From: Candidatus Margulisiibacteriota bacterium
GTDB taxonomy: Bacteria > Margulisbacteria > Marinamargulisbacteria > JBFWNS01
Reading direction: 5' to 3'
DNA: 64,000 nucleotides
NCBI GenBank assembly: GCA_050250935.1
Contig: JBFWNS010000001.1
Span: 130,102 to 194,101, forward strand
The notes under the pieces were generated by a model. That model saw only the letters and a list, made by a program, of their open reading frames with translations. It was not told the origin of the DNA and did not search any database. The position numbers were made by a program, and so were the translations under genes. Below are positions 1 through 59,260 of the stretch, piece after piece; positions within the stretch are counted from its first letter, which is position 1, and each line of letters opens with the position of its first letter.

Positions 1-2721
1 TACCCATACCCCTGTTCCAAACTGGAAGGTGCCATAATTTTCAAAGGTCAGAAATGGGGAGATGCTCCCATTGCTTAGATTGGACAACTCTAACAAGCTG
101 TTTGGCGAAACTGTGCCTATCCCCACAAACCCAGCTTTAGGCTGGTTGCCGATATTTCCAGAAGGAAAATAGATGTTAGGGGTTGTAGTCTCCCAATCCC
201 AAGGCTCAACCGAGGGGCTAGTCGACAGTTCTTCTCCAGTCGGCAAAATATAGCTATCGGCCAAAATATCACCACTGACCAACTGCAAGGCCCCAGCATC
301 CGATGTTCCAGGGACTTTACCAAGCCCCACGCTTCCGAAGGAGCTGATGTACATGGCAGGTGTAGCAACCCCATATTGACCATAAACCGTCATGAGTGTG
401 GGATAAAGGTTGGATGTCGAATTATTAAAGACATACATTGAGGCGTTGCTTGCTGTTGCACCCAGGGCTACGGAGCCAGAAACAAACAATCGGGCAGAAC
501 CTGCCGTGTCTGAAGCGATACCCACGTTGCCAGAGGTTGAAATTGAAAAATGAGTTCCCCCATTTCCGACAAAACGAAGGATGGATCCTGTAGGTGTGAT
601 TCCAGCAACCGTTAAGGCCCCTGCAGAAACCGTATTGGTGCCAATCCCCACACCGCCTCGGGACCGAATGATCAACTGATTTTCAACTTTAGAATCTAAG
701 GAAGCAACCGGTTGGCTGTCCCCAAAATAGGCAGCGCCCAAATGGGTCAAAGTTGCGCCTTTTCCCAAGGCCAAACTGAAGTCGTGTTGAACCGTTTTAT
801 CTGAGCCGCCAAACGCCGTCGAATAAGCGCCCCAAACGGCGTTGCTGGTCCCCCCCATGCTTGAAGCAAAGTTACCGGTTACATAGTTATTGAATCCCCC
901 AACCACAGAATATCGAGACAAATGACTATCGTCCCAATCGGCCCCAGAAAACGCAGACGGGGTCACCAAAGTCCCAAAAACCAAGGTTGATTTTGCAGGG
1001 TAGAAGAAGAACCGCGTTCCTGGGCCCGTTACCGGTAAATTGGCAGAAACCCCATAGGTACCGCTAAATAAAACCCCCGCGTTCCCACTGATGGTTAGGT
1101 TTGCAACCGGGTTGTAAACCCCGATCCCAAAACGGTCTTGTTGGGCCACAAATAGCGGCAAGCCCTGCCCAAGTTTATCTCCTTTTTCAACTCGGAAAGA
1201 CCCATTGGACCCCGTTAAAACCCCCATGGTGTATCGCTCGAGAGTGCCCCCGCTGTAATAGCTGAAGCTGATGGCAGGATCTTGGCTGGGCCGATTGGTG
1301 ATTTGAGAAATTTGGAGCAAATTAGCAGGATCTGGACGACCGATACCCACATTTCCCAACATATAGGAGATGCTGTTTCCGGTCGGATTGAGCTGCCAGA
1401 ATGTGGCATTTGAAATAATCAATCGCAAATCTTTACCCCCTAGCGTTATCCCTTTGGCATCCAAAGTTCCGGACACCTGCAAAGTGACGTTTGGGGTGAT
1501 GGTTCCTATCCCCACATTGCCCGTAGAACCCACAAACAAGACTGAATTGGCAGAACTTGAGGCGCTGTTAAACAAGGCGGCATTGGGCCCGCCCGTAATT
1601 TCCACTCTCGAGCTGGGGACGCTGGTTCCGATTCCCATTTTTTGGGTGGTGGGATCAACATAAAACAAATTGGATGTGGTTAACAAAGAGGTGGAAACAA
1701 ATTGGGTCGGAAACGTGGTTTTGGGGAAGACGACGGTCTTAATCCCTGTTAAAGAAACCCAGCCATCGGATGTCGACACATACCCTTGGAAATCGCTTCC
1801 ATTCCACCGAATGGTACCCGCGTTGGTGGAGCTGGTGTCTCCGACACGAAGACCTCCATTGATGTCCAAGGTTTCTAAAGGAGAAAATCGACCAATCCCA
1901 ATCTTTGTGGTGCTGGTCTCTCCCCAATAAATATCTTCGGTGTTACCTGTAATGGTTTTCCAATCAAAGGCCAAATTAATCCCTGTGTTGCTAACCAAAA
2001 GGGCGGTTGCATTCACTGTCCCGACCACATCTAGGGAAAACCTTGGGGTTGCGGTTCCAATCCCAACGTTACCCCGAACATAGGAAATGTTTTGGCTGAC
2101 ATCTTGTTGCCAGGGGAAAAGGTTCTCGAAGGATTGGCCTGCAATATAAAGTCCTTGGACATTGACTTTTCCATTGACATCAAGCAATTGGTTTGGGGTT
2201 GTTTTCCAAAGACCAATGTGCGAATTATCCGGATCAACATATAAAATGTTGCGGCTCACAGTAAATAATTTGCTGACATTAACGGTTGTTGTAAAGTTCC
2301 CATAGACCGTTGCTGCATCGGCACGACCCGCCGTATCGGCCAGGTTGGTTTTGACGGCATAAGGCAAAGACGTAACGGGCATGTAAATGGTTTCGCTTGT
2401 GGGCAACGTGATGCCCAGATAGGGGTTGGTGACATCCAGATCTGTAATGACCAGCGGAGAAACTTCCCCCAACTTAACCCCAAAATTCCCGTTGGTGAAT
2501 TTAACCAATTTACTTTCGGTCCATGCGCCAGAAGGCGCCGAGTAGGTGCTGTTAGCGGTACTGAAGCTATAAAATTTAAAGGCAACCGAAATATTGCCAC
2601 TTAGGGCTTGATTGGCAGCGTTGTAGGCCGTTCCTTGGAAATCCATGGTCAAGGCCAACACCACCAGCGGTGTGGCTAGCCAAGCAAGTCCCAAAACCAT
2701 TCCCCAAACGTACTTCTTCAT
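1..2721 (-). CDS. Large secreted repeat protein, N-terminal portion only (ORF is open to the window start; C-terminus lies outside)
   Basis: Manual translation from ATG at 2721: signal-peptide-like N-terminus (MKKYVWGMVLGLAWLATPLVVLALT), then at least 10 degenerate repeats built around G-x-[VF]-G-I-G-T-x-x-P...L-x-V-x-G. No long complete ORF is listed here in any frame, consistent with one frame open to the edge. Start supported; function unknown. Confidence 0.6.
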   Translation of the reverse strand, partial: MKKYVWGMVLGLAWLATPLVVLALTMDFQGTAYNAANQALSGNISVAFKFYSFSTANSTYSAPSGAWTESKLVKFTNGNFGVKLGEVSPLVITDLDVTNPYLGITLPTSETIYMPVTSLPYAVKTNLADTAGRADAATVYGNFTTTVNVSKLFTVSRNILYVDPDNSHIGLWKTTPNQLLDVNGKVNVQGLYIAGQSFENLFPWQQDVSQNISYVRGNVGIGTATPRFSLDVVGTVNATALLVSNTGINLAFDWKTITGNTEDIYWGETSTTKIGIGRFSPLETLDINGGLRVGDTSSTNAGTIRWNGSDFQGYVSTSDGWVSLTGIKTVVFPKTTFPTQFVSTSLLTTSNLFYVDPTTQKMGIGTSVPSSRVEITGGPNAALFNSASSSANSVLFVGSTGNVGIGTITPNVTLQVSGTLDAKGITLGGKDLRLIISNATFWQLNPTGNSISYMLGNVGIGRPDPANLLQISQITNRPSQDPAISFSYYSGGTLERYTMGVLTGSNGSFRVEKGDKLGQGLPLFVAQQDRFGIGVYNPVANLTISGNAGVLFSGTYGVSANLPVTGPGTRFFFYPAKSTLVFGTLVTPSAFSGADWDDSHLSRYSVVGGFNNYVTGNFASSMGGTSNAVWGAYSTAFGGSDKTVQHDFSLALGKGATLTHLGAAYFGDSQPVASLDSKVENQLIIRSRGGVGIGTNTVSAGALTVAGITPTGSILRFVGNGGTHFSISTSGNVGIASDTAGSARLFVSGSVALGATASNASMYVFNNSTSNLYPTLMTVYGQYGVATPAMYISSFGSVGLGKVPGTSDAGALQLVSGDILADSYILPTGEELSTSPSVEPWDWETTTPNIYFPSGNIGNQPKAGFVGIGTVSPNSLLELSNLSNGSISPFLTFENYGTFQFGTGVWV

Positions 2722-16403: not shown

Positions 16404-17446
16404 AGTGGCTAGGGCTGTTGGTTCTTCTTGTTTTGGTCTTTATGCTTCTGATCCTGTACCTGGGCTACCATTTTTCTGCACCGGGTTATCAGGGTGCGGT
16501 AAGCTATCACTTCAACGGCAAAACCTTTGAAAATGCAACCCCCGTTCGTACCCGATTTCTGGATGTTTTGAAATGGAAATGGACCTCTTCCCCACAGGCT
16601 TGGCCCCAACATGTGCCATTGACCTTTAAGCCCGACATTCAATACCCCATTCCCAGCAAAGCCTTTCGTCTGACCTTCATCAACCACGATACGTTTTTAA
16701 TCGAAGCCGATCACCTTCGGATTTTAACCGACCCCATTTGGTCCAAGCGGGCCAGCCCATTTTCGATGCTAGGGCCCAAACGGGTACATGATCCCGGTCT
16801 TCCCTTTTCAGAACTCCCCCCCATCGACGTTGTTTTGATCAGCCACAACCATTACGATCATATGGACATCCAAACCCTTAAGGCCCTTCAAAAACGCTGT
16901 CGGCCCTTGTTTATTACCGGTCTTGGCAATAAGGCATTTTTGATACAGCAAGGCCTGCAAAACGTGGTTGAATTGGATTGGTGGGATTCGATTCAAGTGA
17001 AGGGCTGGACCCTGACCTTTACCCCCGCCAAACATTTTTCGAGCCGGGGTTTATTTGATCGGAATCAAACGCTTTGGGGTGGATTTGTCGCAAAATCGGC
17101 CACGGGGGCAACCCTCTATTTTGCAGGAGACACGGGATTCGATCCTTTTTTTAAGGCCATTGCAACACAATTGGGCCCCATTGATGTAGCCTTATTGCCC
17201 ATCGGTGCCTACGAACCCACTTGGTTTATGAAGCCCGTACATTGCAACCCAGCAGAGGCCGTCCAAGCCCATCAATTGTTGGGTGCCAAACAAAGTTTTG
17301 GGATGCATTGGGGCTGCTTTCAGCTCACCGACGAGGCCAGAGAACAACCTTTGGCCGAACTGGCATCTGCCCTGAATCAGGCGCACATTCCCACAGCCGC
17401 CTTTAAAGTGCTTCAACCGGGGCAAACCACGCTGGTTCCGTTTTAA
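16400..17446 (+). CDS. Membrane-anchored MBL-fold metallo-hydrolase
   Basis: N-terminal TM segment; HxHxDH-type motif ISHNHYDHMD; overall resemblance to NAPE-PLD-like Zn hydrolases. Confidence 0.7.
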   Translation: MKWLGLLVLLVLVFMLLILYLGYHFSAPGYQGAVSYHFNGKTFENATPVRTRFLDVLKWKWTSSPQAWPQHVPLTFKPDIQYPIPSKAFRLTFINHDTFLIEADHLRILTDPIWSKRASPFSMLGPKRVHDPGLPFSELPPIDVVLISHNHYDHMDIQTLKALQKRCRPLFITGLGNKAFLIQQGLQNVVELDWWDSIQVKGWTLTFTPAKHFSSRGLFDRNQTLWGGFVAKSATGATLYFAGDTGFDPFFKAIATQLGPIDVALLPIGAYEPTWFMKPVHCNPAEAVQAHQLLGAKQSFGMHWGCFQLTDEAREQPLAELASALNQAHIPTAAFKVLQPGQTTLVPF

Positions 17447-25137: not shown

Positions 25138-26346
25138 GTGGCTATGATACAGTATTCTCATCCGAATGGGCCAGAACTCTGGGGGATTTTTACCGTGTCT
25201 AAAAAAATTTTTATCAGTGCGATAGAGCCGTCCGCAGACCTGCATGGGTCCCATTTGGTCAAAGCCCTCCTTCGCCAAGACCCCGAGCTGATCTGCTACG
25301 GCTATGGTGGGCAGCACTTAAAGGCCACTGGCATTGCCATTTTAGATGACTTAACGGACCGCAGCACCATTGGATTTATCGAGCCTATTCGACATCTTTT
25401 TAGGTTTGCCATAGCCTATTTTCGTATTAAAAAAGAACTTCAAAAAACCAGGCCGGACTTGGTGGTGGTGATCGATGCGCAGGGATTTCACCTGCCTGTT
25501 TTAAAAGCCGCCAAAGCTCTGGGCCTAAAAACCGCCTATTTTATCACCCCCCAAGAATGGCATTGGGGCAGCGACGAAGGCGGCAAATCCGTGATTGCTG
25601 TAACCGATTTGTTGATTTGTATTTTTAAGCAAGAAGCCGAATTTTATTCGCGACTTGGGGGCCATGTAGCCTATGTGGGGCACCCGCTGGTGGATAGCGT
25701 GGTACCAAAGCTGTCCCCCGAAGCGTTGCGCAATACCCTAAACCTATCCCCTACCAAACCCATTCTGGCCATTTTTCCAGGGTCCCGAAAACAAGAGCTG
25801 GCCCTGACGGCTCCCGTGCTGCTGGAAGCCGCCAGTCTGATTTCCCGAAAAAAAGACATTCAACCTGTCATTTCGGTGGCCGCCCTGCATTTGGAACAAA
25901 AAATTCGTGCTTTGGCCATCGAGGCTCGACTGCCTTTTGCAACTTTTTATACCGGGGATTCGGCCAGCTTGATCCAAGCCGCGGATCTGTCTCTGACCAC
26001 TTCGGGCACCATTACCCTCGAGCATGCCATTTTAAAAAAACTAGCGGTGGTGGCCTATAAATTTTCGCCGCTGTCCTATCGAATCGCCAAATTTGTACTC
26101 CGTAAAAAACTAGAAAAACTTCGGTTTATGGCCCTGCCCAACATGCTGGCCGACGCCGAAATTTTTCCCGAATTTTTTCAAGACAAAGCCACAGCTTCGG
26201 CCCTAGCATCAACAGGATTGGCCCTTTTGGACGATGCAACCTTGCGCACCGAACGCCAATCCAAATTGGATGGACTACCGGCCCAACTGGGGGATCCTGG
26301 GGTTTTAGACCGGGCAGCAACAGCCTTGTTGACAACCCTTCACTAG
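25138..26346 (+). CDS. lpxB: Lipid-A-disaccharide synthase
   Basis: IFISAIEPSADLHG, ITPQEWHWG, PGSR and ALPNMLA motifs align with E. coli LpxB positions; exact start uncertain. Confidence 0.8.
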   Translation: MAMIQYSHPNGPELWGIFTVSKKIFISAIEPSADLHGSHLVKALLRQDPELICYGYGGQHLKATGIAILDDLTDRSTIGFIEPIRHLFRFAIAYFRIKKELQKTRPDLVVVIDAQGFHLPVLKAAKALGLKTAYFITPQEWHWGSDEGGKSVIAVTDLLICIFKQEAEFYSRLGGHVAYVGHPLVDSVVPKLSPEALRNTLNLSPTKPILAIFPGSRKQELALTAPVLLEAASLISRKKDIQPVISVAALHLEQKIRALAIEARLPFATFYTGDSASLIQAADLSLTTSGTITLEHAILKKLAVVAYKFSPLSYRIAKFVLRKKLEKLRFMALPNMLADAEIFPEFFQDKATASALASTGLALLDDATLRTERQSKLDGLPAQLGDPGVLDRAATALLTTLH

Positions 26347-31299: not shown

Positions 31300-32587
31300 C
31301 ACAACGCTTGCTGAAGCGCTGAACAAAAAAATTGGCCTCTACGAACTGTTTCAAATCGTCGAGGCCCTACCCGCCTTACCGGCCAGATCCGAACACATCC
31401 TCTTGGCCACCTTGCCTGGGGATGTGCACCGGCTGGGCACCCGCATTACCCAAGCTTTGCTTGAAAAGGCAGGGTGTCGGGTAGACGTGCACTGGGAAAT
31501 GACGCCCCAGGCCTTGACCCTCTATTTGGCAAACAACAACCCCACCCATATTGTGATGACCTGTTTTTTAACCGCCCAACTGGATTTTTTCGGGGCCTTG
31601 GTCCCCCAGTTGGTCCAAACACAGACTTGTTTGGTTTTGGGTGGATTTGCGTTTTCTCCCCGGACCTTGTCGACGCGATTTAGCACCTTGGCCCCTAAAA
31701 CCGTGCATCCCAAAAACGGCGTCGAAGCTGCGGGGTTTATTTTACAAGCCTGGCCCTTGCCTTGGGTTTCCAGCCTGACGTTTTCGCCAGATCTCGACAC
31801 TGATCGAAGCAAAAAATGCGCCCCGGTCGCGGTTCAAACCCCTTGCCTGCCCCATTCTTTTTCGCCCATCACCCAAACCGATTTTAACCTGGAAACCCTG
31901 TGGGATGCCATTAATCCACGAACCCTCTACAATTTGCATTTGGGCTTCAAGGGCAACCCGCATCAAGCCCAGGGGAATCCCCTGTTTACCGCAATAACAG
32001 AGCGGTTTAATCGCCTAAAACCCCTGGCACATCGGCTCTTTGAACCCCAGGCATTGTGGCAACATTTTAAAGCCAAAAGCAACCACGATCAGATTTGGGT
32101 GTATCCCGAAGCTTCGGCCCCAGTAAGCTGGGATTTCCCCCGAAAAAATGGGATTTGCCTTGCCGATTATCTGCGTCACGACACCGACGATTTTATCACC
32201 CTCATGGCTGTGACCATTGGAAAAGTCGCGGGAGACCACACCGAAACCCTGTTTCAGCAAGGCCGCTTTACCGACATGCTGTGCTGGCATGCCCTGACCG
32301 TTCAAAGTGCCGAAGCTTTGGCCGAAACCGTTCATGCCCAGTTGCGGCGTATGCACGGTGACGAAGACAGCCCCCCCGATGCCCAATCCCTGTGGGATGC
32401 CCGCTACACCGGCAAACGCTACAGCTTTGGCTACGCGGCTTGCCCCGATTTACGAGGACAGGCCCTATTTTTTAAGTTGCTAAAACCCGAAACCATCGGG
32501 ATTCATCTTTCCGAATCGATGATGATGAACCCCGAAGCTTCGGTGAATGCTCTGGTGTTTTACCACCCCGCTGCTGCCTATTTTTGA
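31268..32587 (+). CDS. Stand-alone cobalamin-binding protein resembling the B12-binding and AdoMet reactivation domains of methionine synthase (no catalytic barrels)
   Basis: N-terminal half has the B12-binding DxHxxG motif (LPGDVHRLG); C-terminal half ends ...RYSFGYAACPDL...IGIHLSESMMMNPEASVNALVFYHPAAAYF, the hallmark of the MetH activation domain. Start overlaps the receptor gene by 32 nt; no signal peptide. Confidence 0.7.
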   Translation: MSTLASSNSFNTTLAEALNKKIGLYELFQIVEALPALPARSEHILLATLPGDVHRLGTRITQALLEKAGCRVDVHWEMTPQALTLYLANNNPTHIVMTCFLTAQLDFFGALVPQLVQTQTCLVLGGFAFSPRTLSTRFSTLAPKTVHPKNGVEAAGFILQAWPLPWVSSLTFSPDLDTDRSKKCAPVAVQTPCLPHSFSPITQTDFNLETLWDAINPRTLYNLHLGFKGNPHQAQGNPLFTAITERFNRLKPLAHRLFEPQALWQHFKAKSNHDQIWVYPEASAPVSWDFPRKNGICLADYLRHDTDDFITLMAVTIGKVAGDHTETLFQQGRFTDMLCWHALTVQSAEALAETVHAQLRRMHGDEDSPPDAQSLWDARYTGKRYSFGYAACPDLRGQALFFKLLKPETIGIHLSESMMMNPEASVNALVFYHPAAAYF

Positions 32588-32852
32588 ATGGGGCTTGCGT
32601 CGCCCCCTCAACCGAAGCAAGTTCGGTTGAGCCTCCCCCTCACGCTGGCGCTGGGCCTTCGGCCATGGTCTGTTTTTTTGTACAGAGTCCTTTAGGCCCC
32701 TGCGGGGAGGGAAGACAAACTTGCTTTGGCTTCCCGATTCAAAAACGCTTGCCGTTTTTGTTTATAATTATACTGCCCCTGCGGGGAGGAAAGACAAACT
32801 TGCTTTGGCTTCCCGATTCAAAAACGCTTGCCGTTTTTGTTTATAATTTAAA
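32588..32852. repeat. Mosaic intergenic repeat cluster: ~135-bp element shared with 57019-57154 plus a ~79-bp near-perfect tandem duplication
   Basis: 32591-32725 is near-identical to 57019-57154, including GC hairpins and a hairpin+T-run; 32696-32769 and 32775-32848 are tandem copies differing at about one position. Confidence 0.8.
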
Positions 32853-32854
32853 CC

Positions 32855-35716
32855 CTACCGCCAATAGCGCCCTACGGTGATGTTGATTGTCTGATGGTCG
32901 GTGTCGTCGTTGAGCATGTACGAGGCGTTGCTGCCAAAGCTGAAGAGGCGGACGCCCATCATGTCGGCCCAAATATCCCCATCCATGACTTCAAAAAACT
33001 CACCTGTGCCATCGAAGGCCACATCGATTTTGTCCGTTTGACCCGAGCTGACCAAATCGTACCAAACCACCAATCGATAGCTGGAATTCCGGGACAAAAT
33101 GCTGTCGGTTTTGGTAAACGTGGGTAAGGTATAGCTGGATTGACGATTGCCGGCCAATACCGACTCCATAGATCCAAGACTGTACACCATCGACTGACTG
33201 GATGGTCCCGTCACGGGGGTTTTGGCACCGGCAGAGAAGAAATAGTCCGACCAAACACCGGCATCGGATCCACCCATTTTAAACAAGCCCACTTTCCATG
33301 TACCGGTTTGACCTACGCCAACCCGAGAACTTAGCGTCGATGGGAAGGTTACAGTCCCGTTCAACCCAATGCTCCACGGTGTGGCAGCCCCAACTTTAAA
33401 GCTGGTTCGGCTTTCAGCGCCTTGCCAAACCACACGTCCAGACGATTGCTCCACCAAGACGGGCATGATGTTGAGTTCGTAGGTGGTTTCGTAGTTGTTC
33501 CCGATATCGCGAACCGTACGGGCCAACTGCTGTTTCAACTGGAAGGAATTCCCTTGGATAAAGCGATTGTCTTGCCAAGAGCTCCAAATAAATTTCCATT
33601 TGTAGTTATCACCACTGGAATCCCAGCTTCCGGAGGGATTAAAGGTATTGTTGTTCCAATCCACTTTAATGGCCGAGAGCCCCAGGTTGATGGCATAGGC
33701 CAAGAAATAGCCATCGGGTACCGTACCAGTCGGTGTATCCCATTGCAGGTTGGGTTGGGCTTTATCCGTATCAACATCCACATCCATGGTTTGCATTTCA
33801 AACGTGTCGTCCCAGCCTGTGGCTTGTACTCTGGCCATGTCCATGCCCCGTGGGTTCCGCCAATTAATCAGGCCAATGCTGGGTTTCAAAATTCTGACCG
33901 TTGTTGATGTCAACACATTGTTGTCGGCATCCAGCACCTTAATCGTGGCCGTTCCCGAAATGTAATCCGTCACAAAGGTGGGGGTAAAGTCTCCAGAAAA
34001 ACCTGTATTTTGATAAGGCGAGATGATCCAGGTGACATCGAAAGGATTATCCAAGGCCTTTTTGGATTGAGCAGCATTAAATGCCGAAATGGCAACCAGG
34101 GATTGAGACGATCTTAACGCTTGGGGATTCCCAATCGATTGGGGGTTATTGCCAGCAGAAACGCGTTGGTATTCCACCGTTTGCGTTCCGGTCGAGGTGG
34201 GGTATTCCAAAACCACACGGGCAGCCGCTGCAGAAGCGTTTTCTGCATAAAGAACCACGCGAGAATCCAAGGCATCGGTGGGTTGCCAGTTGTTGTCCGA
34301 TACTTGTCTATAGGCCCGAACAGGAACCAAAGAGGTTTCAACAATGTAATAGCGCCCGGTTTGAATGCTTACAAAATTAATGGCCTTAAGCAATACAAAC
34401 GGATCAAAAACGGGGCCATCGTGGGTAAAAAACTCATTTCGAACCATCAGCGGCAAAGAACTTCCATCCAATAATCCTGCTTGAATCATGACGGCAATGG
34501 CCTGAGGAACCGTCATGGTTTGGCTTTCGGTAATGGGCAATGTCCACCGGTTGTTTTTGGGGAAAATAACCCGCATGGCCGGCATCGTCGTGGTATCGGA
34601 CGTCGCGGTGGCATCGTAAAAGGCGTATAACTTTCTAAGTTGTGAATTATCTTGATTCATAACCCCCAACATTTCTGCCTTAACATTAGCAACCGACCAA
34701 TAGTCCGACTTTAACTCCCCTTCTGGCAAACTCTCGTTAAACGCCTGGGCAAACTCGGCAATGGTTACCGTTACACCATTCAAATAGCCCGTTGCAAATT
34801 GCTCAATAAAAAATTCTGGTGGCACGCCAACCGAAGATCCGTCTTTGGATCCGCCACCACTTTTACCCCCAAAAATGGACCGAATAATTTGTTTGGCACG
34901 ATCTAGGGTTAAGGTCGCATTAACCTGAGAATCCAAAGCGGCTTGTTGGGCCAATTTTCGTAAATCATCGTCGTTTTGCAACTGCTCGACGATTAGTTTT
35001 TGGGTATCGTCGGGCGCAGGAAACACGTCTTTATTCACCGTAGCATCGGTGGTTGGCTTGACCGGAGACACCCGCTGAATTTCCCCAGAGCTGAGTTTTG
35101 AATTGATGGTATCGGTGATTTTTTGTGTCAATTCGTCGGACAAATCCCCGCTGAATTTATTCCCGTTTCCTTTGGCTACTTTTTCGACCACATAATCCAC
35201 AATAGCCCGGGTCTTTTCAGAGACGTTGGCCGACACGGCCGTTTCTCCGCTTTTAACGTTCACATAGGTGTCCATGCGCAACACGTTTTGGGCTCCGGAA
35301 GAATCTGTCCCTGTTTTGACAATCCCGACCACATATTTTTTACCGTCTGCTATATTTTTGAATTCGTAAGCGCCATCCACCACATTGGCTGTAATGCCCG
35401 TGGGAATAACAGTGCCATCAGATCCAATTTCATATAAAATGGCTGTCCCATCCGACAAAGTCGAAATGTCCGACAAATGTTTTGTGAAGGCTTGAGACAA
35501 CCTTTTGGACGACGACAAACTGCTAATCGAAGACACCGGATTGGTAATCCCCACCTGGCTTTGATCTTGAGCCGATGCAATGACATAGCCACTTAAGGTG
35601 GTGGCCCCCGCATAACTGGTGGTCGAGGTTGTCGACGTGGTGGATTCCGATGCTTTTCCACAGCCCCCCAAAGCCAAAATGAATATCAGCGGAACCGCTG
35701 CAAACCACGTTTTCAT
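32855..35716 (-). CDS. Large predicted lipoprotein of unknown function
   Basis: Start set at MKTWF (ATG 35716, GGAGGG RBS 7 nt upstream); lipobox LALGGC followed by Ser/Thr-rich linker; ~950 aa with no recognised catalytic motif. Confidence 0.6.
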   Translation of the reverse strand: MKTWFAAVPLIFILALGGCGKASESTTSTTSTTSYAGATTLSGYVIASAQDQSQVGITNPVSSISSLSSSKRLSQAFTKHLSDISTLSDGTAILYEIGSDGTVIPTGITANVVDGAYEFKNIADGKKYVVGIVKTGTDSSGAQNVLRMDTYVNVKSGETAVSANVSEKTRAIVDYVVEKVAKGNGNKFSGDLSDELTQKITDTINSKLSSGEIQRVSPVKPTTDATVNKDVFPAPDDTQKLIVEQLQNDDDLRKLAQQAALDSQVNATLTLDRAKQIIRSIFGGKSGGGSKDGSSVGVPPEFFIEQFATGYLNGVTVTIAEFAQAFNESLPEGELKSDYWSVANVKAEMLGVMNQDNSQLRKLYAFYDATATSDTTTMPAMRVIFPKNNRWTLPITESQTMTVPQAIAVMIQAGLLDGSSLPLMVRNEFFTHDGPVFDPFVLLKAINFVSIQTGRYYIVETSLVPVRAYRQVSDNNWQPTDALDSRVVLYAENASAAAARVVLEYPTSTGTQTVEYQRVSAGNNPQSIGNPQALRSSQSLVAISAFNAAQSKKALDNPFDVTWIISPYQNTGFSGDFTPTFVTDYISGTATIKVLDADNNVLTSTTVRILKPSIGLINWRNPRGMDMARVQATGWDDTFEMQTMDVDVDTDKAQPNLQWDTPTGTVPDGYFLAYAINLGLSAIKVDWNNNTFNPSGSWDSSGDNYKWKFIWSSWQDNRFIQGNSFQLKQQLARTVRDIGNNYETTYELNIMPVLVEQSSGRVVWQGAESRTSFKVGAATPWSIGLNGTVTFPSTLSSRVGVGQTGTWKVGLFKMGGSDAGVWSDYFFSAGAKTPVTGPSSQSMVYSLGSMESVLAGNRQSSYTLPTFTKTDSILSRNSSYRLVVWYDLVSSGQTDKIDVAFDGTGEFFEVMDGDIWADMMGVRLFSFGSNASYMLNDDTDHQTINITVGRYWR

Positions 35717-35876
35717 CTCTGTCCCTCCATTTTTGAAACTGTTTCGTTCATTATACATACTTCTTGCCCCTTTCCCAAAATTTTGAGGTTTTAAACCTGT
35801 TTTTTTAATCGAAAATTAGTTTTCTATTTGTGAAGGGGGATTCAAAAATGGTATTCTGATCCTCACTTTTACCCCT

Positions 35877-37723: not shown

Positions 37724-39063
37724 GCACACCCACCAACAAATTCTTTGTTTTGGATACCAACGTTTTAATCCACAACCCAGCGGCCTTGTACTCGTTTAGC
37801 GAACACACGGTTGTCTTGCCCATCACGGTGATTGAAGAACTCGACAAATTCAAAACCGCTTCCGATAAAAAAGGCATGCATGCCCGGCAAGTCATGCGCG
37901 AAATTGATGGCCTGGTTCGCAAAGGGGCTTTAAAAGAAGGGGCAAAAATCAAAACGGGTGGGAAATTACGCATTGCCCTATGTCCCGAAAAAAGTGTCCT
38001 TAGTTCTTTGGATCTGTCGGTGAATGACAATAAAATTTTAAACTGTGCCCTCTCGTTTTTGGCCCCAGGCAACACTGTTTTTTTTATCTCCAAAGATTTG
38101 AATTCCAGAATCAAGGCCGAGGCACTGGGCATTGTGGCCATGGACTACGAAAAAGAAAAAGTAGAATACACCTCGTTGTACCAGGGTTGGCGCGAGATAG
38201 CTCTGCCACAGGCCAGCATTGATGCGCTGTATAAAGACCATAAACTAGAGGTTAGCAAAACCAACTATTTGGACAACGAGTATTTTTGCATTAAATCTTT
38301 GGAAAACCCCAATACCTCCTGTCTGGCCAAATTTGATGCCCCTCACAATCAACTGGTGCCCATTCGGTCCCATTTCGAAGCCATGGGCGTTAAACCCGCC
38401 AACCTCGAACAACAATTTGCCTTCGATTTATTGCTCAACGACGCGGTGGTCTTGGTCAGTTTGGTGGGACAAGCAGGCACAGGGAAAACCCTGATTGCCC
38501 TGGCCTGCGGCCTTCAACAGGTGCTGGGCAAATCCCCCAAATACGAAAAATTACTGGTGGCCAGACCCATTATGCCCATGGGCAAAGACATTGGCTATTT
38601 ACCTGGTACCAAAGACCAAAAGCTTAATTATTGGATGCAGCCTATTTTCGACAACCTGAATTTTATTATGCACAAAGACGAAACCCCAGAAGACGAACAG
38701 CCCCGTTATAAAAAGGCCGAAAAGTTCGACAAAATCGACTACCTTCTGGAATCTCAGTTGCTTGAAATCGAAGCCCTCACCTATATTCGGGGTCGCAGTA
38801 TTCCCAACCAATTTATCATTATTGATGAGGCCCAAAATCTGACCCCTCACGAAATCAAAACCATCATTTCCCGAGCCGGCAAAGGCACCAAAATTGTCCT
38901 GACTGGCGATGCCGAACAAATCGACAACCCCTATTTGGATGCCAATTCCAACGGACTCAGCTACACCGCCGAACACCTCAAAGGCCAACACATTACCGGC
39001 CACATGTTTTTGTCCAAAAGCGAGCGCTCGCCTTTGGCAACCTTGGCGGCAGAGATGTTATAG
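37720..39063 (+). CDS. PhoH2-type protein (N-terminal PIN domain fused to PhoH-like ATPase)
   Basis: PIN start FVLDTNVLIH; Walker A GQAGTGKT; Walker B FIIIDEAQN; typical PhoH2/YlaK architecture. Confidence 0.8.
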   Translation: MSTPTNKFFVLDTNVLIHNPAALYSFSEHTVVLPITVIEELDKFKTASDKKGMHARQVMREIDGLVRKGALKEGAKIKTGGKLRIALCPEKSVLSSLDLSVNDNKILNCALSFLAPGNTVFFISKDLNSRIKAEALGIVAMDYEKEKVEYTSLYQGWREIALPQASIDALYKDHKLEVSKTNYLDNEYFCIKSLENPNTSCLAKFDAPHNQLVPIRSHFEAMGVKPANLEQQFAFDLLLNDAVVLVSLVGQAGTGKTLIALACGLQQVLGKSPKYEKLLVARPIMPMGKDIGYLPGTKDQKLNYWMQPIFDNLNFIMHKDETPEDEQPRYKKAEKFDKIDYLLESQLLEIEALTYIRGRSIPNQFIIIDEAQNLTPHEIKTIISRAGKGTKIVLTGDAEQIDNPYLDANSNGLSYTAEHLKGQHITGHMFLSKSERSPLATLAAEML

Positions 39064-51366: not shown

Positions 51367-51735
51367 ATGAAACCAGAACGCGTAGCGGTGATTGGCGCCT
51401 CTGACAAACCCGACCGCTATTCCTACATGGCCATCGAGCGCCTCCGCAACCATGGCCATGTGGCGTTGCCCGTACACCCCAAGTTAAAAACCGTTCAAGG
51501 CCTGGCCGTATATCCCAGCCTTGCCCAAGTCCCCCACCCCATCGATACCATCACCCTGTACGTTAACGCCGAGAAATCCGCCGCGATGGCCGCAGACCTC
51601 ATCGCCGCAAACCCCCGCCGCGTAATCTTTAACCCCGGTACCGAAAGCCCTGCTCTAGAAGCCACTCTCCAAAACGCCGGCATCCAAACGATGGAAGCCT
51701 GCACGCTGGTCCTGCTTTCTACGAAGCAATTTTAA
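51367..51735 (+). CDS. CoA-binding domain protein (YccU-like)
   Basis: 122 aa; VAVIGASDKPDRYSY...VHPK...G...YPSL pattern of CoA_binding_2 proteins. Confidence 0.65.
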   Translation: MKPERVAVIGASDKPDRYSYMAIERLRNHGHVALPVHPKLKTVQGLAVYPSLAQVPHPIDTITLYVNAEKSAAMAADLIAANPRRVIFNPGTESPALEATLQNAGIQTMEACTLVLLSTKQF

Positions 51736-52321
51736 TCACAAACGCACAGCGTTTGTGATGGATTGTATACACAAACGACAAGCGTTTGTGGGTCGCAGCG
51801 TTGAAGTAAATTCAACGCCGCTCCCGCTGCGCGGCCTCCGTTCCAGCCTTTTCCAGAGAAACGGATACTCCGTTACAGGGATAATGGGGCTAAAAAAATG
51901 GATTATAAGCTCGATTGCCAGCGAAGCGAAGCAGTTTCAGATTGTATTCACAAACGCACAGCGTTTGTGGGTCGGAACATTGAAGCAAGTTCAATCTTCC
52001 TCCCGCTGCGCGGCTTCTGTTCCAGCTTTTTCCAGCGAAACTGTTCCTCCGTTCCAGAGATAAGGGGGCTAAAAAAATGGATTATAAACCGATTGCCAGC
52101 GAAGCGAAGCAATCCCAAACCGCGCTAAGCGTTAAGTGTTGGTCTTACCCCCTCCAATCGGGAGGGGGCAGGGGGTGGGGAACCTTATTAGCGAAATGTC
52201 CGAAACCCCATCCAGCCGAAGGCTGCGTGGGTGAGTTTTGAGCGTAAAAGCACAGGTGGGGGGTCCTAGGGGGGCACCTCGCGCAGCGTGGTTCCCCCCT
52301 AGGCGTTAAGCGACGCTTACC
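51736..52321. repeat. Convergent-intergenic repeat cluster: two ~179-bp tandem units with CACAAACG-N5-CGTTTGTG palindromes, followed by GC-rich hairpins
   Basis: Units at ~51761-51939 and ~51940-52118; each has a palindrome, a TTGAA-N5-TTCAA hairpin whose loop varies between copies, and GGGGCTAAAAAAATGGATTATAA; then hairpins ccccctcc/ggagggggg (52147-52170) and cctagggggg...cccccctagg (52264-52303). Confidence 0.8.
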
Positions 52322-56372: not shown

Positions 56373-56508
56373 AGAAGATTTCATGGATTGTTTATGGTCT
56401 ATTTTTGAGACTTGATCTCAATAAAAATCAGGATTCTTGCTTGATCAAAACCCTCGACTTGGGTTAGGGTTAAACCCGAACGTTATCCCCCGCAAAAAAG
56501 GACATTTT

Positions 56509-57003
56509 ATGGCTGACCCCTCGTTTGATATCGCCTCTAAAATTGACTGGCAAGAAATCGTCAACGCCGTTAACCAAACCGAGCGAGACATCGCCAATCG
56601 CTACGACCTTAAAGACAGCGGCGCCACCATCGAGCAAAAGCAAGCGGACTCTAAAATTTTTATTGAAGCCCCAGACGACTATAAAGTAAACGCCATCTAT
56701 GAACTCTTTGTTCAAAAGCTCATCAAGCGTGGGATTTCAGCCAAAGCCGTTAAAGCCGGCGAAATCAAATCCGCCTTGGGTGGCCGAGCTAAAATGGAAA
56801 TAACGGTTCAACAAGGCATTTCCAAAGAAAAAGCCAAAGAAATCACAAAAGACGTCAAGGACAGCGGCTTGAAAGTTCAAACCCAAATTCAGGACGATCA
56901 GATTCGGGTATCTGGCAAAAAGATCGACGATCTACAGGCCGTTATGAAGGTCTTAAAAGCCAAAGACTACGACATTCATATTGATTTTATTAATTATAGA
57001 TAG
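56509..57003 (+). CDS. yajQ: YajQ-family nucleotide-binding protein
   Basis: Start set at MADPSFDIASKIDWQEIVNAV (ATG 56509, AAGGA upstream), the typical YajQ N-terminus. Confidence 0.8.
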   Translation: MADPSFDIASKIDWQEIVNAVNQTERDIANRYDLKDSGATIEQKQADSKIFIEAPDDYKVNAIYELFVQKLIKRGISAKAVKAGEIKSALGGRAKMEITVQQGISKEKAKEITKDVKDSGLKVQTQIQDDQIRVSGKKIDDLQAVMKVLKAKDYDIHIDFINYR

Positions 57004-57310
57004 GGGCATCTATAGATGGGGGCTTGCGTCGCCCCCTCAACCGAAGCAAGTTCGGTTGAGCCTCCCCCTCACGCTGGCGCTGGGCCTTCGGCCTGGCTTG
57101 TCTTTTTTGTACAGGGTCCTTTAGGCCCCTGCGGGGAGGAAAGTCGAACTTGCTCCAAGTGCGGGCGAGGAGGTTGAATTTAGTTCAACCTCCTCCCCAC
57201 AAAACCTGTGGTTTTGTGATTATAATAAGCCCGTTTTTTAGTACAGGGCCTTTTAGGCCCCTGCAGGCGAACAGCTTTGGATTTACTCCAAAGCTGCGAC
57301 ACACAAACGC
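57004..57310. repeat. Convergent-intergenic repeat cluster sharing a ~135-bp element with 32591-32725 and palindrome modules with 51736-52118
   Basis: 57019-57154 near-identical to 32591-32725; further GTACAGGG...TTTAGGCCCCTGC module and a CACAAACG...GTTTGTG palindrome at ~57299-57325. Confidence 0.8.
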
Positions 57311-58677
57311 TATGTGTTTGTGTTTACAATCGGCGTAAACTCGCCTTCCCATTTGGCAACGACAACGGTTGCCAAGCAGTTCCCTAAAACGTTAACCGCT
57401 GTACGACCCATGTCCATCAAGGCATCGATACCTAAAATCAAGAAAATGGGTTCAACTGGCAGATTGAATTGGGCGGCAGTACCCAAAAGAATCACCAAGG
57501 AAGCTCGGGCAACGCCGGCCACGCCTTTGCTGGTCAACATCAGGGTAAACCCAATCAAAAGCTGATGCATAATCGACAAATGAATCCCGGCCGCCTGTGC
57601 CACAAAAACAGTGGCCAAAGACAAATACAAGGTTGTTCCATCCAAATTGAAGCTATACCCCGTTGGAATTACAAAAGACACGATTTTTCGGGGAACCCCA
57701 ATCGATTCCATCCCTTCCATGGCCTTGGGCAATGCAGACTCTGAACTGGCGGTACCAAAGGCAATCACAACAGGCTCTGCAACCGCTTTTAAAAAGGCTT
57801 TGATCGGAACACGAACGATTAAGGCAATCGGTAAAAGCACACACAACACAAAGACGATAAGCGCCACATAAAGGGTTAACAACAGCTGGAACAAATTCAC
57901 CAAAACGCCAAGACCCATGTTCCCAACCGTATAGGCAATGGCACCCCCTACCCCAATTGGGGCAAAGAGCATCACCACATCGGTGAACTTGAACATAACC
58001 TCGGACAATCCTTCAAAAAACGACACCATGGGGGCTTTGTACTTTTCTTTAACCATGGCCAACCCAATGGCAAAAAAGATGCTGAACACCACAATTTGAA
58101 GAATTTCCCCATTGGCAACAGACTTGGCAATGTTTTCTGGGAAAATGTGCAACACAATGTCATGAAAAGATTGTTTTTGAACTTGAACCACTTCAGCATG
58201 CAGGTTGGCTGGCATGTGAATCCCAACCCCGGCTTTGCTGACGTTAATGGCAAATAACCCAACCACCAAAGCAATGGTGGTGACCAACTCGAAGTAAATG
58301 ATGGATTTTAAACCCATACGTCCAACTTGTTTAAGGTTGGAATGTCCGGCAATCCCAACCACCAAAGTTGCAAACAACAGTGGGGCAATGATTGTTTTGA
58401 TCAAATGCAAGAAAATTTCGCTTAAAATTTTCAGATTAACCGCAACAGCTGGCAAATCGTGGCCAACCAAAATACCAATCACCATGCTGATAAAAATAAA
58501 AACCGTTAAAGACCGTTTTTGAAACCCATAAGCCAAAAGCCCAAGACTGGCCACCAAATGCCCCCCGTACAATAAAGGCTGGGACACCGGTGCAAGATCA
58601 TACAGATGTAAGACCTGTAAAATAGCCGCTACTGTCACCGACAGAATAGCCGCCCAAACGGAAACGGATTTACTCAT
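57310..58677 (-). CDS. Dicarboxylate/amino acid:cation symporter (DAACS family)
   Basis: 455 aa polytopic; re-entrant loop motifs typical of GltP/DctA-type symporters. Confidence 0.8.
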   Translation of the reverse strand: MSKSVSVWAAILSVTVAAILQVLHLYDLAPVSQPLLYGGHLVASLGLLAYGFQKRSLTVFIFISMVIGILVGHDLPAVAVNLKILSEIFLHLIKTIIAPLLFATLVVGIAGHSNLKQVGRMGLKSIIYFELVTTIALVVGLFAINVSKAGVGIHMPANLHAEVVQVQKQSFHDIVLHIFPENIAKSVANGEILQIVVFSIFFAIGLAMVKEKYKAPMVSFFEGLSEVMFKFTDVVMLFAPIGVGGAIAYTVGNMGLGVLVNLFQLLLTLYVALIVFVLCVLLPIALIVRVPIKAFLKAVAEPVVIAFGTASSESALPKAMEGMESIGVPRKIVSFVIPTGYSFNLDGTTLYLSLATVFVAQAAGIHLSIMHQLLIGFTLMLTSKGVAGVARASLVILLGTAAQFNLPVEPIFLILGIDALMDMGRTAVNVLGNCLATVVVAKWEGEFTPIVNTNT

Positions 58678-58771: not shown

Positions 58772-59260
58772 ATGTCTAACCTAACCATCAGAAGTGTGCT
58801 TGGTCTCGTTTTTTGGGTTCTTTTTTGCCCGATGGCGATGGCCCATGTGTTTTCTGGGCGGGTGGTTCATGTTAGCGATGGGGACACGATTGTGGTTTTG
58901 CAGGACAATCGCCACAGCACAAAAATTCGGCTGGCCGCCATTGATTGTCCAGAAAAATCCCAACCCTTTGGACGCCAAGCCCAACGGTTTACCCAAGCGT
59001 TTTGCGACGGCCAACGCGTGACAGTTACCACCACCAAAAAAGACCGATACGGCCGAACCATTGGCACGGTTCAAGTGGGATCAAAACGGTTGGATATCGC
59101 CCTATTGGAAGCCGGCCTGGCCTGGCATTACCGCTATTTTGACCACGATCCGGCCTTGGATGCTCTTGAACAACAGGCCAGGGCCGAGCGCAAGGGGCTG
59201 TGGTCCGAGGCCAATCCCACCCCACCCTGGGACTATCGCAAAGCGCGTCGGCGGCGGTAA
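58772..59260 (+). CDS. Secreted thermonuclease (SNase-like)
   Basis: Signal peptide; VSDGDTIVV...IRLAAIDCPEK...DRYGRTIG...GLAWHYRYF pattern. Confidence 0.75.
   Translation: MSNLTIRSVLGLVFWVLFCPMAMAHVFSGRVVHVSDGDTIVVLQDNRHSTKIRLAAIDCPEKSQPFGRQAQRFTQAFCDGQRVTVTTTKKDRYGRTIGTVQVGSKRLDIALLEAGLAWHYRYFDHDPALDALEQQARAERKGLWSEANPTPPWDYRKARRRR

Follow-up and report, generated by a model that had tools for sequence, protein, structure and literature searches.

The spacer between yajQ and the converging gene of a sodium:dicarboxylate symporter is probably an array of lineage-specific, mosaic, hairpin-forming intergenic repeats, similar in kind to REP/BIME, NIME and BOX elements, that acts at convergent 3' ends. 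Judged by alignment, all three repeat loci in the window (the whole stretch of DNA that was analysed, 64 kb) hold one hairpin-repeat family. The DNA read consisted of this window and an extension of ~7 kb, and all window-wide counts refer to the 64 kb. The family is a lineage-specific, REP/BIME-like mosaic repeat family, that is, an ordinary kind of element and no new kind of system, and it is a clear and structurally constrained one in a candidate phylum known only from metagenomes.

yajQ (DUF520) is encoded on the + strand and ends with the stop codon 57001-57003, and the symporter gene (SDF family, 57310-58677, stop codon 57310-57312) runs toward it on the - strand. According to Pfam, the genes flanking the three repeat loci are unrelated housekeeping genes; the 32-kb locus lies between a MetH-like (MetH-activation/B12-binding) gene upstream and a converging 967-aa gene downstream. 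Each look-up of exact proteins, done with several proteins of the window, led to a single public sample, SRR27751816, and the symporter protein is identical to NCBI MGE4169264.1, encoded on a 576-kb contig of a metagenome-assembled genome of Candidatus Margulisiibacteriota. The large subunit of ribonucleotide reductase (RNR), encoded next to the symporter, reaches no more than 74% identity with GTDB species representatives, and its best matches are Marinamargulisbacteria. The nearest symporter homologue is 73% identical, and the closest homologues (~67-73%) are unnamed metagenome proteins and proteins of Bacteroidota (Daejeonella, Rhodocytophaga, Sphingobacteriaceae, Saprospiraceae); with an RNR neighbour that is Marinamargulisbacteria-like, the symporter gene may be a horizontal acquisition. 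In the public gene call, yajQ starts at an upstream TTG (56437-57003, 188 aa), and the Pfam DUF520 domain starts at the ATG at 56506 (165 aa), so that the annotated start is probably too far upstream; YajQ with the start codon chosen here had no exact match in the protein look-up, and the 188-aa TTG-start form is the public call. The 967-aa protein that adjoins the 32.7-kb repeat locus (32855-35758, - strand) has no Pfam match. An open reading frame that is cut by the left edge of the window (1-2721, - strand) belongs to a 2965-aa gene that continues in locus L084 (10962-19859), and no Pfam matches are on record for this gene.

Units and hairpins of the repeat family

Six core units align over ~75-80 nt once the repeats at 51.8 kb are reverse-complemented, with a mean column identity of 71-74%. 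Each unit reads, in this order, GCCCCTGC-GGGGAGG, hairpin X, YCCGAC, hairpin F and WWTAYAAT. Hairpin X spans 25-29 nt, with a stem of 10-12 bp and a 5-nt loop (CTTGC, TTTAC or TTTAG), and hairpin F (CACAAACG..CGTTTGTG, 8-10 bp) spans 21-25 nt. Accessory modules connect the units, namely the D hairpin, with a T-run in front of it, and a GC-rich terminator hairpin. The six core units were used to build a covariance model (R1), which scores 73-91 bits on each of them and found no other full unit in the 64 kb. The inventory of the window thus comprises six full units, two inverted diverged units and one lone F hairpin, at three loci within 25 kb.

The 32.7-kb locus holds two tandem units on the + strand (32692-32770 and 32771-32849; 89.1 and 87.0 bits) that are 99% identical and have a period of 79 nt. 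At 51.8 kb, two units on the - strand (51760-51838 and 51939-52017; 91.2 and 90.3 bits) lie inside a 179-nt tandem repeat of 84-85% identity, next to a lone F hairpin (51735-51759, - strand) that touches the stop codon of a CoA-binding gene. The yajQ-symporter spacer contributes two units on the + strand. Unit U57a2 (57151-57228, 73.2 bits, fold z = -6.4) has a 12-bp X hairpin with the loop TTTAG, a 9-bp F hairpin (CACAAAACC-TGT-GGTTTTGTG) and ATTATAAT. Unit U57b (57254-57332, 84.9 bits) consists of an X hairpin (CAGCTTTGGA-TTTAC-TCCAAAGCTG), CGAC, an F hairpin (ACACAAACG-CTATG-TGTTTGTGT) and TTACAAT.

The first-pass annotation of this spacer had listed several of these modules, and they are indeed present. 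The GGTTGAA-N5-TTCAACC hairpin it named (57172-57190) is the X hairpin of U57a2; it has a counterpart at 51800-51816 and is larger than described, forming a perfect 12-bp stem GAGGAGGTTGAA/TTCAACCTCCTC over 57167-57195. The second module, GTACAGGGYCYTTTAGGCCCCTGC, is the D module (GTACAGGG..CCCCTGC); it has copies at 57109 and 57241 and a third at 32680 that differs at one position, giving three matches in the window against 0 expected from shuffles. The CACAAACG..GTTTGTG palindrome (57302-57322) is the F hairpin of U57b and has one mismatch, a G.T wobble, to the 51.8-kb consensus. The pattern CACAAACG-N5-CGTTTGTG has six matches in the window against 0.04 expected: the one at 57302, with its single mismatch, three at 51.7-52.0 kb and two, in the CAAAAACG variant, at 32.7 kb. 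The proposed link to 51.8 kb is therefore real, and it goes further than the palindrome to which it had been limited: 55 nt (57277-57331) match the reverse complement of 51761-51815 with 87% identity (E 8e-10), second hairpin included. The repeat locus had been delimited as 57004-57310, and its right end must be moved, since the repeat enters the coding sequence of the symporter by 22 nt. The similarity among the loci extends beyond short low-complexity GC stretches, and the description of the modules as building blocks shared by three loci, rather than as unrelated elements, holds for all six alignable units with their 73-91 bits.

Both hairpins, X and F, are kept by compensatory substitutions. 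In the six-unit alignment, 87.5% of the cells are paired, compared with 35-47% after shifting the 3' partners by 1-3 columns. Changes on both sides occurred at 11 of the 20 pairs overall and at 8 of the 11 pairs of hairpin X, and the pattern is evident in arm pairs such as GCGTTGAA/TTCAACGC, CAGCTTTGGA/TCCAAAGCTG and GGAAGACAAA/TTTGGCTTCC. None of 500 column shuffles reached the observed covariation score or paired percentage, a result that comes from six related sequences and is not to be read as a formal probability. Compared with shuffled sequence, the yajQ-symporter spacer as a whole reaches fold z-scores of -8.0 (+ strand) and -8.1 (- strand), and the counts of G.U versus A.C pairs (about 2-4 versus 1-2) favour the unit orientation, but not decisively. 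The covariation is no proof of an RNA function, because palindromes can be preserved as features of the DNA, too.

The compensatory changes bear directly on the idea that the repeats are neutral junk, produced from old terminators by local duplication and gene conversion and free of any selected role. The 99% identical tandem duplication at 32.7 kb, the toleration of degenerate and chimeric units, and the clustering of the three loci within 25 kb would agree with such an origin. However, substitutions on both arms keep both hairpins at ~70% identity, which drift alone would not do, and we give this explanation only a slight chance. The loci are also not local duplications of one another, as they are 5 to 19 kb apart with unrelated genes between them.

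That the spacers encode small proteins is exceedingly improbable. Open reading frames of 53-102 aa do span the repeats (for example 98, 102 and 62 aa), and a GGAGG-like motif is located 5' of hairpin X. However, the one repeat-spanning frame that was scanned, of 98 aa, has no Pfam match, a six-frame pseudo-protein found no match among 5.8 billion proteins, and the units vary by paired changes in the arms and not synonymously. Furthermore, a 1-nt indel within the would-be frame distinguishes the two tandem copies at 51.8 kb. Both of these copies (51898-51932 and 52077-52110) keep AAAAAAATGGATTATAA, which resembles a start codon with an upstream G-run; the indel, directly behind AAAAAAATGGATTATAA, shifts the frame of the conserved GATTGCCAGCGAAGCGAAGCA, and this is therefore not a conserved open reading frame. 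The absence of Pfam and protein matches, the indel and the paired arm changes led us to reject a protein-coding region in general.

Duplication and recombination of modules

The first-pass annotation had recognised a 135-bp element of 32591-32725 in the yajQ-symporter spacer, and the alignment bears this out: 57019-57154 and 32590-32725 are 92% identical without gaps and 94% identical with gaps (E 1.5e-55). The first 75 nt of this 136-nt pair are identical, a divergent patch of 9 nt follows, and the match ends at 57154/32725. The composite block as a whole has 136-138 nt (57017-57154, + strand, 94% identity to 32588-32725). Its 57-kb copy begins 14 nt past the yajQ stop codon, and the second copy (32588-32725, + strand) lies immediately 3' of the stop codon of the MetH-activation/B12-binding gene.

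From left to right, the block is composed of the hairpins M1 and M2, a CCTCCCCC stretch, a GC-rich hairpin with TTGTCTTTTTT, a D module and the first half of a core unit. M1 is GGGGGC-N7-GCCCCC (57018-57036, + strand). M2, CTCAACCGAA-GCAAG-TTCGGTTGAG (57036-57060, + strand), is an X-type hairpin in inverted orientation, with a loop, GCAAG, that is the reverse complement of CTTGC. The terminator-like hairpin GCTGGGCC-TTC-GGCCTGGC, followed by TTGTCTTTTTT, occupies 57079-57108 (+ strand, -14.3 kcal/mol). The first copy of the D module, GTACAGGGTCCTTTAGGCCCCTGC, is an imperfect hairpin at 57109-57132 (+ strand), and the second copy, GTACAGGGCCTTTTAGGCCCCTGC, is found at 57241-57264 (+ strand). 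The half unit at the right end of the block is a truncated, chimeric core unit (57125-57156, + strand), in the loop of which the block homology ends.

The left half of the block can be read as a diverged core unit on the - strand (56991-57078), composed of GGGGGAGG, an X hairpin, M1 replacing F, and TCTATAAT. The covariance model R1 gives this stretch 22.1 bits (E 6e-5 across the window) and its 32-kb counterpart (32578-32649) 16.7 bits, and in both cases M1 substitutes for F, and a TATAAT-like end reaches into the final codons of the upstream gene (yajQ at 57 kb). A simple local alignment of the reverse-complemented left half with the units recovered only an 11-nt loop match of marginal significance. 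An inverted diverged unit inside the block is thus likely and moderately supported, but not proven. It faces the direct units at 57 and 32 kb, and the clear units are arranged in direct tandem.

The alignments show that blocks were duplicated and, by all appearances, recombined at a hairpin loop. The block homology stops at 57154/32725 within the loop of hairpin X, and the unit in which it stops combines a 5' arm and loop of the 32-kb type (GGAAAGTCGAA-CTTGC) with a 3' arm of the U57b type (TCCAAG-TGCG), so that its arms are unpaired. The end of the block in a hairpin loop and the chimeric unit support recombination between modules. The identical chimeric junction is present in an independently assembled Logan contig (L001), and it is therefore not a product of the present assembly. 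At both loci, Logan contigs break off after the first 30 nt of the shared block (57048 and 32620), and another one begins exactly at 57125. The Logan graph has k = 31, and stops at the block edges are the behaviour expected of such a graph at a true genomic repeat.

The modules had been proposed to be mobile or recombining, and of these two options, recombination and duplication are borne out by the shared block, the tandem copies and the chimeric unit; transposition is not, as neither terminal inverted repeats nor, among the 20 window proteins scanned, a transposase were found. In 56980-57345, there are no terminal inverted repeats, only internal hairpins and the internal pairing of M2 with a unit, and a classic MITE was rejected on this ground. 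The left flanks of the block copies differ (TTTTTGA versus CTATAG), and at the right end the block passes into further units. The Pfam scan took in the products of 20 of the ~60 open reading frames of the window, and none of these proteins has a transposase domain.

A more general version of this idea would regard the units as non-autonomous mobile elements, either REP/REPIN elements moved by a RAYT or IS200-like transposase or MITEs, and the position at gene ends as tolerated insertion. We consider this unlikely, but several features fit it. Short conserved sequences flank the hairpins, CCGAC 5' and TAYAAT 3' of them, and HUH Y1 transposases (IS200/IS605, RAYT) read such hairpin-flank signals. 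The inverted unit faces direct units, and M2 pairs with the chimeric unit over 13 bp in a REPIN-like manner. The three spacers consist almost entirely of repeats while other convergent pairs abut, as insertions would produce it, and at one gene the 3' end appears to be replaced by the repeat. Against this, the block ends without terminal inverted repeats, a target duplication is not recognisable, the GTAG motif is absent, and neither a Y1 nor any other transposase domain was found in the 20 scanned proteins; moreover, the mostly direct tandem arrangement of the units points to slippage or unequal exchange rather than to repeated insertion.

Convergent gene ends and a proposed role in transcription termination

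The three loci are spacers of 267, 586 and 306 nt between convergent genes and consist almost wholly of repeat modules. At the seven other convergent junctions of the open reading frame map, the gaps range from -32 to +1 nt, some of the small frames at these junctions possibly not being genes, and Logan gene calls confirm two of the overlaps (-4 and -28 nt). Examples of such compact junctions are 17443-17446, 26343-26346, 39058-39063 and 59233-59260. The genome is very compact, and its convergent genes either overlap or abut, or they have arrays between them. This distribution suggests that the arrays insulate transcription units that would otherwise collide. Since the flanking genes are unrelated housekeeping genes, the arrays are unlikely to regulate particular genes.

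At each locus, the F end of the array meets the converging gene: at 32.8 kb it comes within 5 nt of the stop codon, at 51.7 kb it coincides with the stop codon, and at 57.3 kb the symporter stop codon lies within the loop of the F hairpin. The last 22 nt of U57b (57310-57331) are the stop codon and the final six codons (IVNTNT) of the symporter. Up to ..AKWEGEF the sequence is conserved among symporter homologues, which then continue with variable tails of 8-22 residues; the present protein has the shortest one. This fits, without proving it, a replacement of the native symporter tail by the repeat.

The first-pass annotation had set the modules against terminators, as if they had to be one or the other. 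This is a false choice, as the shared block itself holds a canonical terminator: the hairpin at 57079-57097 with its T-run is a predicted canonical intrinsic terminator for yajQ, ~75 nt past the stop codon, and by a stricter rule 57079-57108 is the only intergenic canonical intrinsic terminator in the 64 kb. The two G.U pairs of the hairpin (-14.3 kcal/mol) form solely on the + strand. The 32-kb copy of this terminator is degraded (-9.8 kcal/mol, z = -0.65). Hairpin F with TTTATAAT passes a lenient terminator scan, and no canonical terminator facing the - strand genes was found. Most likely, the elements are both repeated and terminator or 3'-UTR structures.

In the proposed mechanism, the arrays would form part of the 3' UTRs of the two converging transcripts. 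The GC-rich hairpin and the U-tract would stop the + strand transcript, and the stacked hairpins would block read-through and shield the RNA 3' ends from exonucleases. Recombination or gene conversion could have carried the arrays from one gene end to another, and, more speculatively, they may also be moved by a single-strand transposase of the HUH/RAYT type that recognises hairpins. A role in termination and 3'-end protection has been proposed for REP/BIME and SPRITE elements (PMC3184786).

A role as terminator or stabiliser does not account for the invariant TA.AAT that follows hairpin F, which could be a -10 box or a recognition or cleavage signal. If it were a -10 box, each unit could be a small RNA gene or an outward promoter, with TAYAAT driving structured or antisense RNAs. 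TA.AAT is shared without variation by the six units, the lone F hairpin and the inverted unit are each followed by a similar box, the motif is more specific than a U-tract needs to be, and the last box at every locus points into the converging gene; Correia and REP2 repeat families have been reported to carry promoters (PMC3184786). However, a consensus scan found no sigma-70-like promoter in the three spacers, with the reservation that the consensus may not be that of this phylum, the -35 position is inside hairpin F and reads CACAAA, and an Rfam match is lacking. We therefore regard small RNA genes or promoters as very unlikely. A more far-reaching and quite unlikely idea comes in two versions: hairpin F with CCGAC/TAYAAT would be read by an undescribed Margulisbacteria transposase of the Y1/HUH type, or another single-strand transposase, that targets convergent gene ends, or the TAYAAT boxes would be promoters that direct batteries of antisense small RNAs onto the neighbouring 3' ends.

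Comparison with known repeat systems and database searches

A close parallel is provided by the REP sequences and BIMEs (bacterial interspersed mosaic elements) of enterobacteria and pseudomonads, REPIN doublets among them. Like these, the present repeats are short imperfect palindromes (about 20-40 nt in REP elements) outside of genes, with one F hairpin here overlapping a stop codon; palindromes and conserved motifs form mosaic clusters, which in our case occur in varied combinations at three loci; and the position at gene 3' ends, the presumed effects on termination and mRNA stability and the association with recombination are shared. A bias of REP elements for convergent genes has been reported in Pseudomonas syringae (PMC3184786). 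However, the sequences are unrelated, and the GTAG beside the palindrome is missing here, its place being taken by the flanks GGGGAGG, CCGAC and TAYAAT, with only the D module starting with GTAC. The stems are AT-richer than those of classical REPs, the clear units are in direct tandem and not in alternating orientation, with a likely inverted unit facing them at 57 and 32 kb, and the invariant TAYAAT box after hairpin F is a feature of the present family. REP/BIME elements have tens to hundreds of dispersed copies per genome, and the present count covers 64 kb; they also have a cognate RAYT (Y1 transposase) gene flanked by REPs, and the 20 window proteins scanned against Pfam include no transposase. 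The family may be small or clustered, as the left-hand Logan contig of 69 kb is unbroken by any repeat and window positions 1-32,500 are without a unit.

BOX and SPRITE elements of Streptococcus pneumoniae and the neisserial intergenic mosaic elements (NIME) also use a few reusable boxes in variable number and have a strong predicted RNA structure, but their sequences are unrelated and they belong to unrelated phyla. BOX elements, furthermore, have defined A-B(n)-C ends and are thought to be mobilised by an IS transposase, and comparable ends or a mobilising gene were not seen here. With intrinsic terminators, the family shares the GC-rich hairpin with T-run of 57079-57108, on the same strand as the upstream gene, but intrinsic terminators do not have 94% identity over 136 nt between unrelated genes, they do not form arrays of 8-10 hairpins, and most of the present hairpins are without a U-tract. 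In the case of the Rickettsia palindromic elements (RPEs), insertion is in frame within genes, and translation turns the elements into internal protein segments. The present repeat likewise overlaps a gene end, where it makes up the symporter stop codon and the six codons before it, but its effect is confined to the variable C-terminal tail. Most descriptions of small intergenic repeat families come from cultured Proteobacteria, Firmicutes, Neisseria and Cyanobacteria, and a literature search that combined the phylum with REP elements found no report.

Several other identities were considered and rejected. With Rfam 15, only a tRNA-Thr passes the gathering threshold in the window, and permissive Rfam scans of the three spacers gave chance-level scores (17-22 bits versus thresholds of 45-100), which speaks against a known RNA or riboswitch. 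A CRISPR array does not agree with units that abut or are joined by repeated modules, with periods of 79, 179 and ~105 nt and without unique spacers. No viral origin was detected, as two patterns had no match in viral contigs.

Beyond the window, R1 found no unit in 0.66 Mb of Margulisbacteria-type loci, blastn likewise found no modules in relatives, and yajQ and the symporter gene were neighbours in none of 78 loci with relatives of the RNR large subunit. A search for more copies via mis-called open reading frames, using a six-frame pseudo-protein, found none. The exact pattern of the D module has 0 matches in GTDB species genomes, which do not include the host genome. In JGI metagenomes, from which the host genome is also absent, it has two matches of 22-23 nt in unrelated contexts (L002 and L003), about the chance number for 19 specified bases by a rough estimate of the collection size, and we did not accept them as family members. 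The match in L002 (1785-1807, Ga0180433_10067706), TACAGGGACCTTTAGGCCCCTGC, agrees with the D module at 22 of 23 positions and is located in an intergenic, hairpin-rich stretch; it was judged to be due to chance.

For the annotation of this metagenome-assembled genome, the repeats matter in several ways: they break short-read assemblies at their exact edges, they create spurious open reading frames of 53-102 aa, and they reshape the C-terminus of a gene. A Logan contig also breaks at 52273/52274, in the right part of the 51.8-kb spacer (52140-52300). This part contains further hairpins with G/C-runs, among them CCCCCTCC-AATCG-GGAGGGGG at 52148-52168 and GGGGGCACCTCGCGCAGCGTGGTTCCCCC near 52270-52298, and these G/C-run hairpins may represent a second repeat family with copies outside the window.
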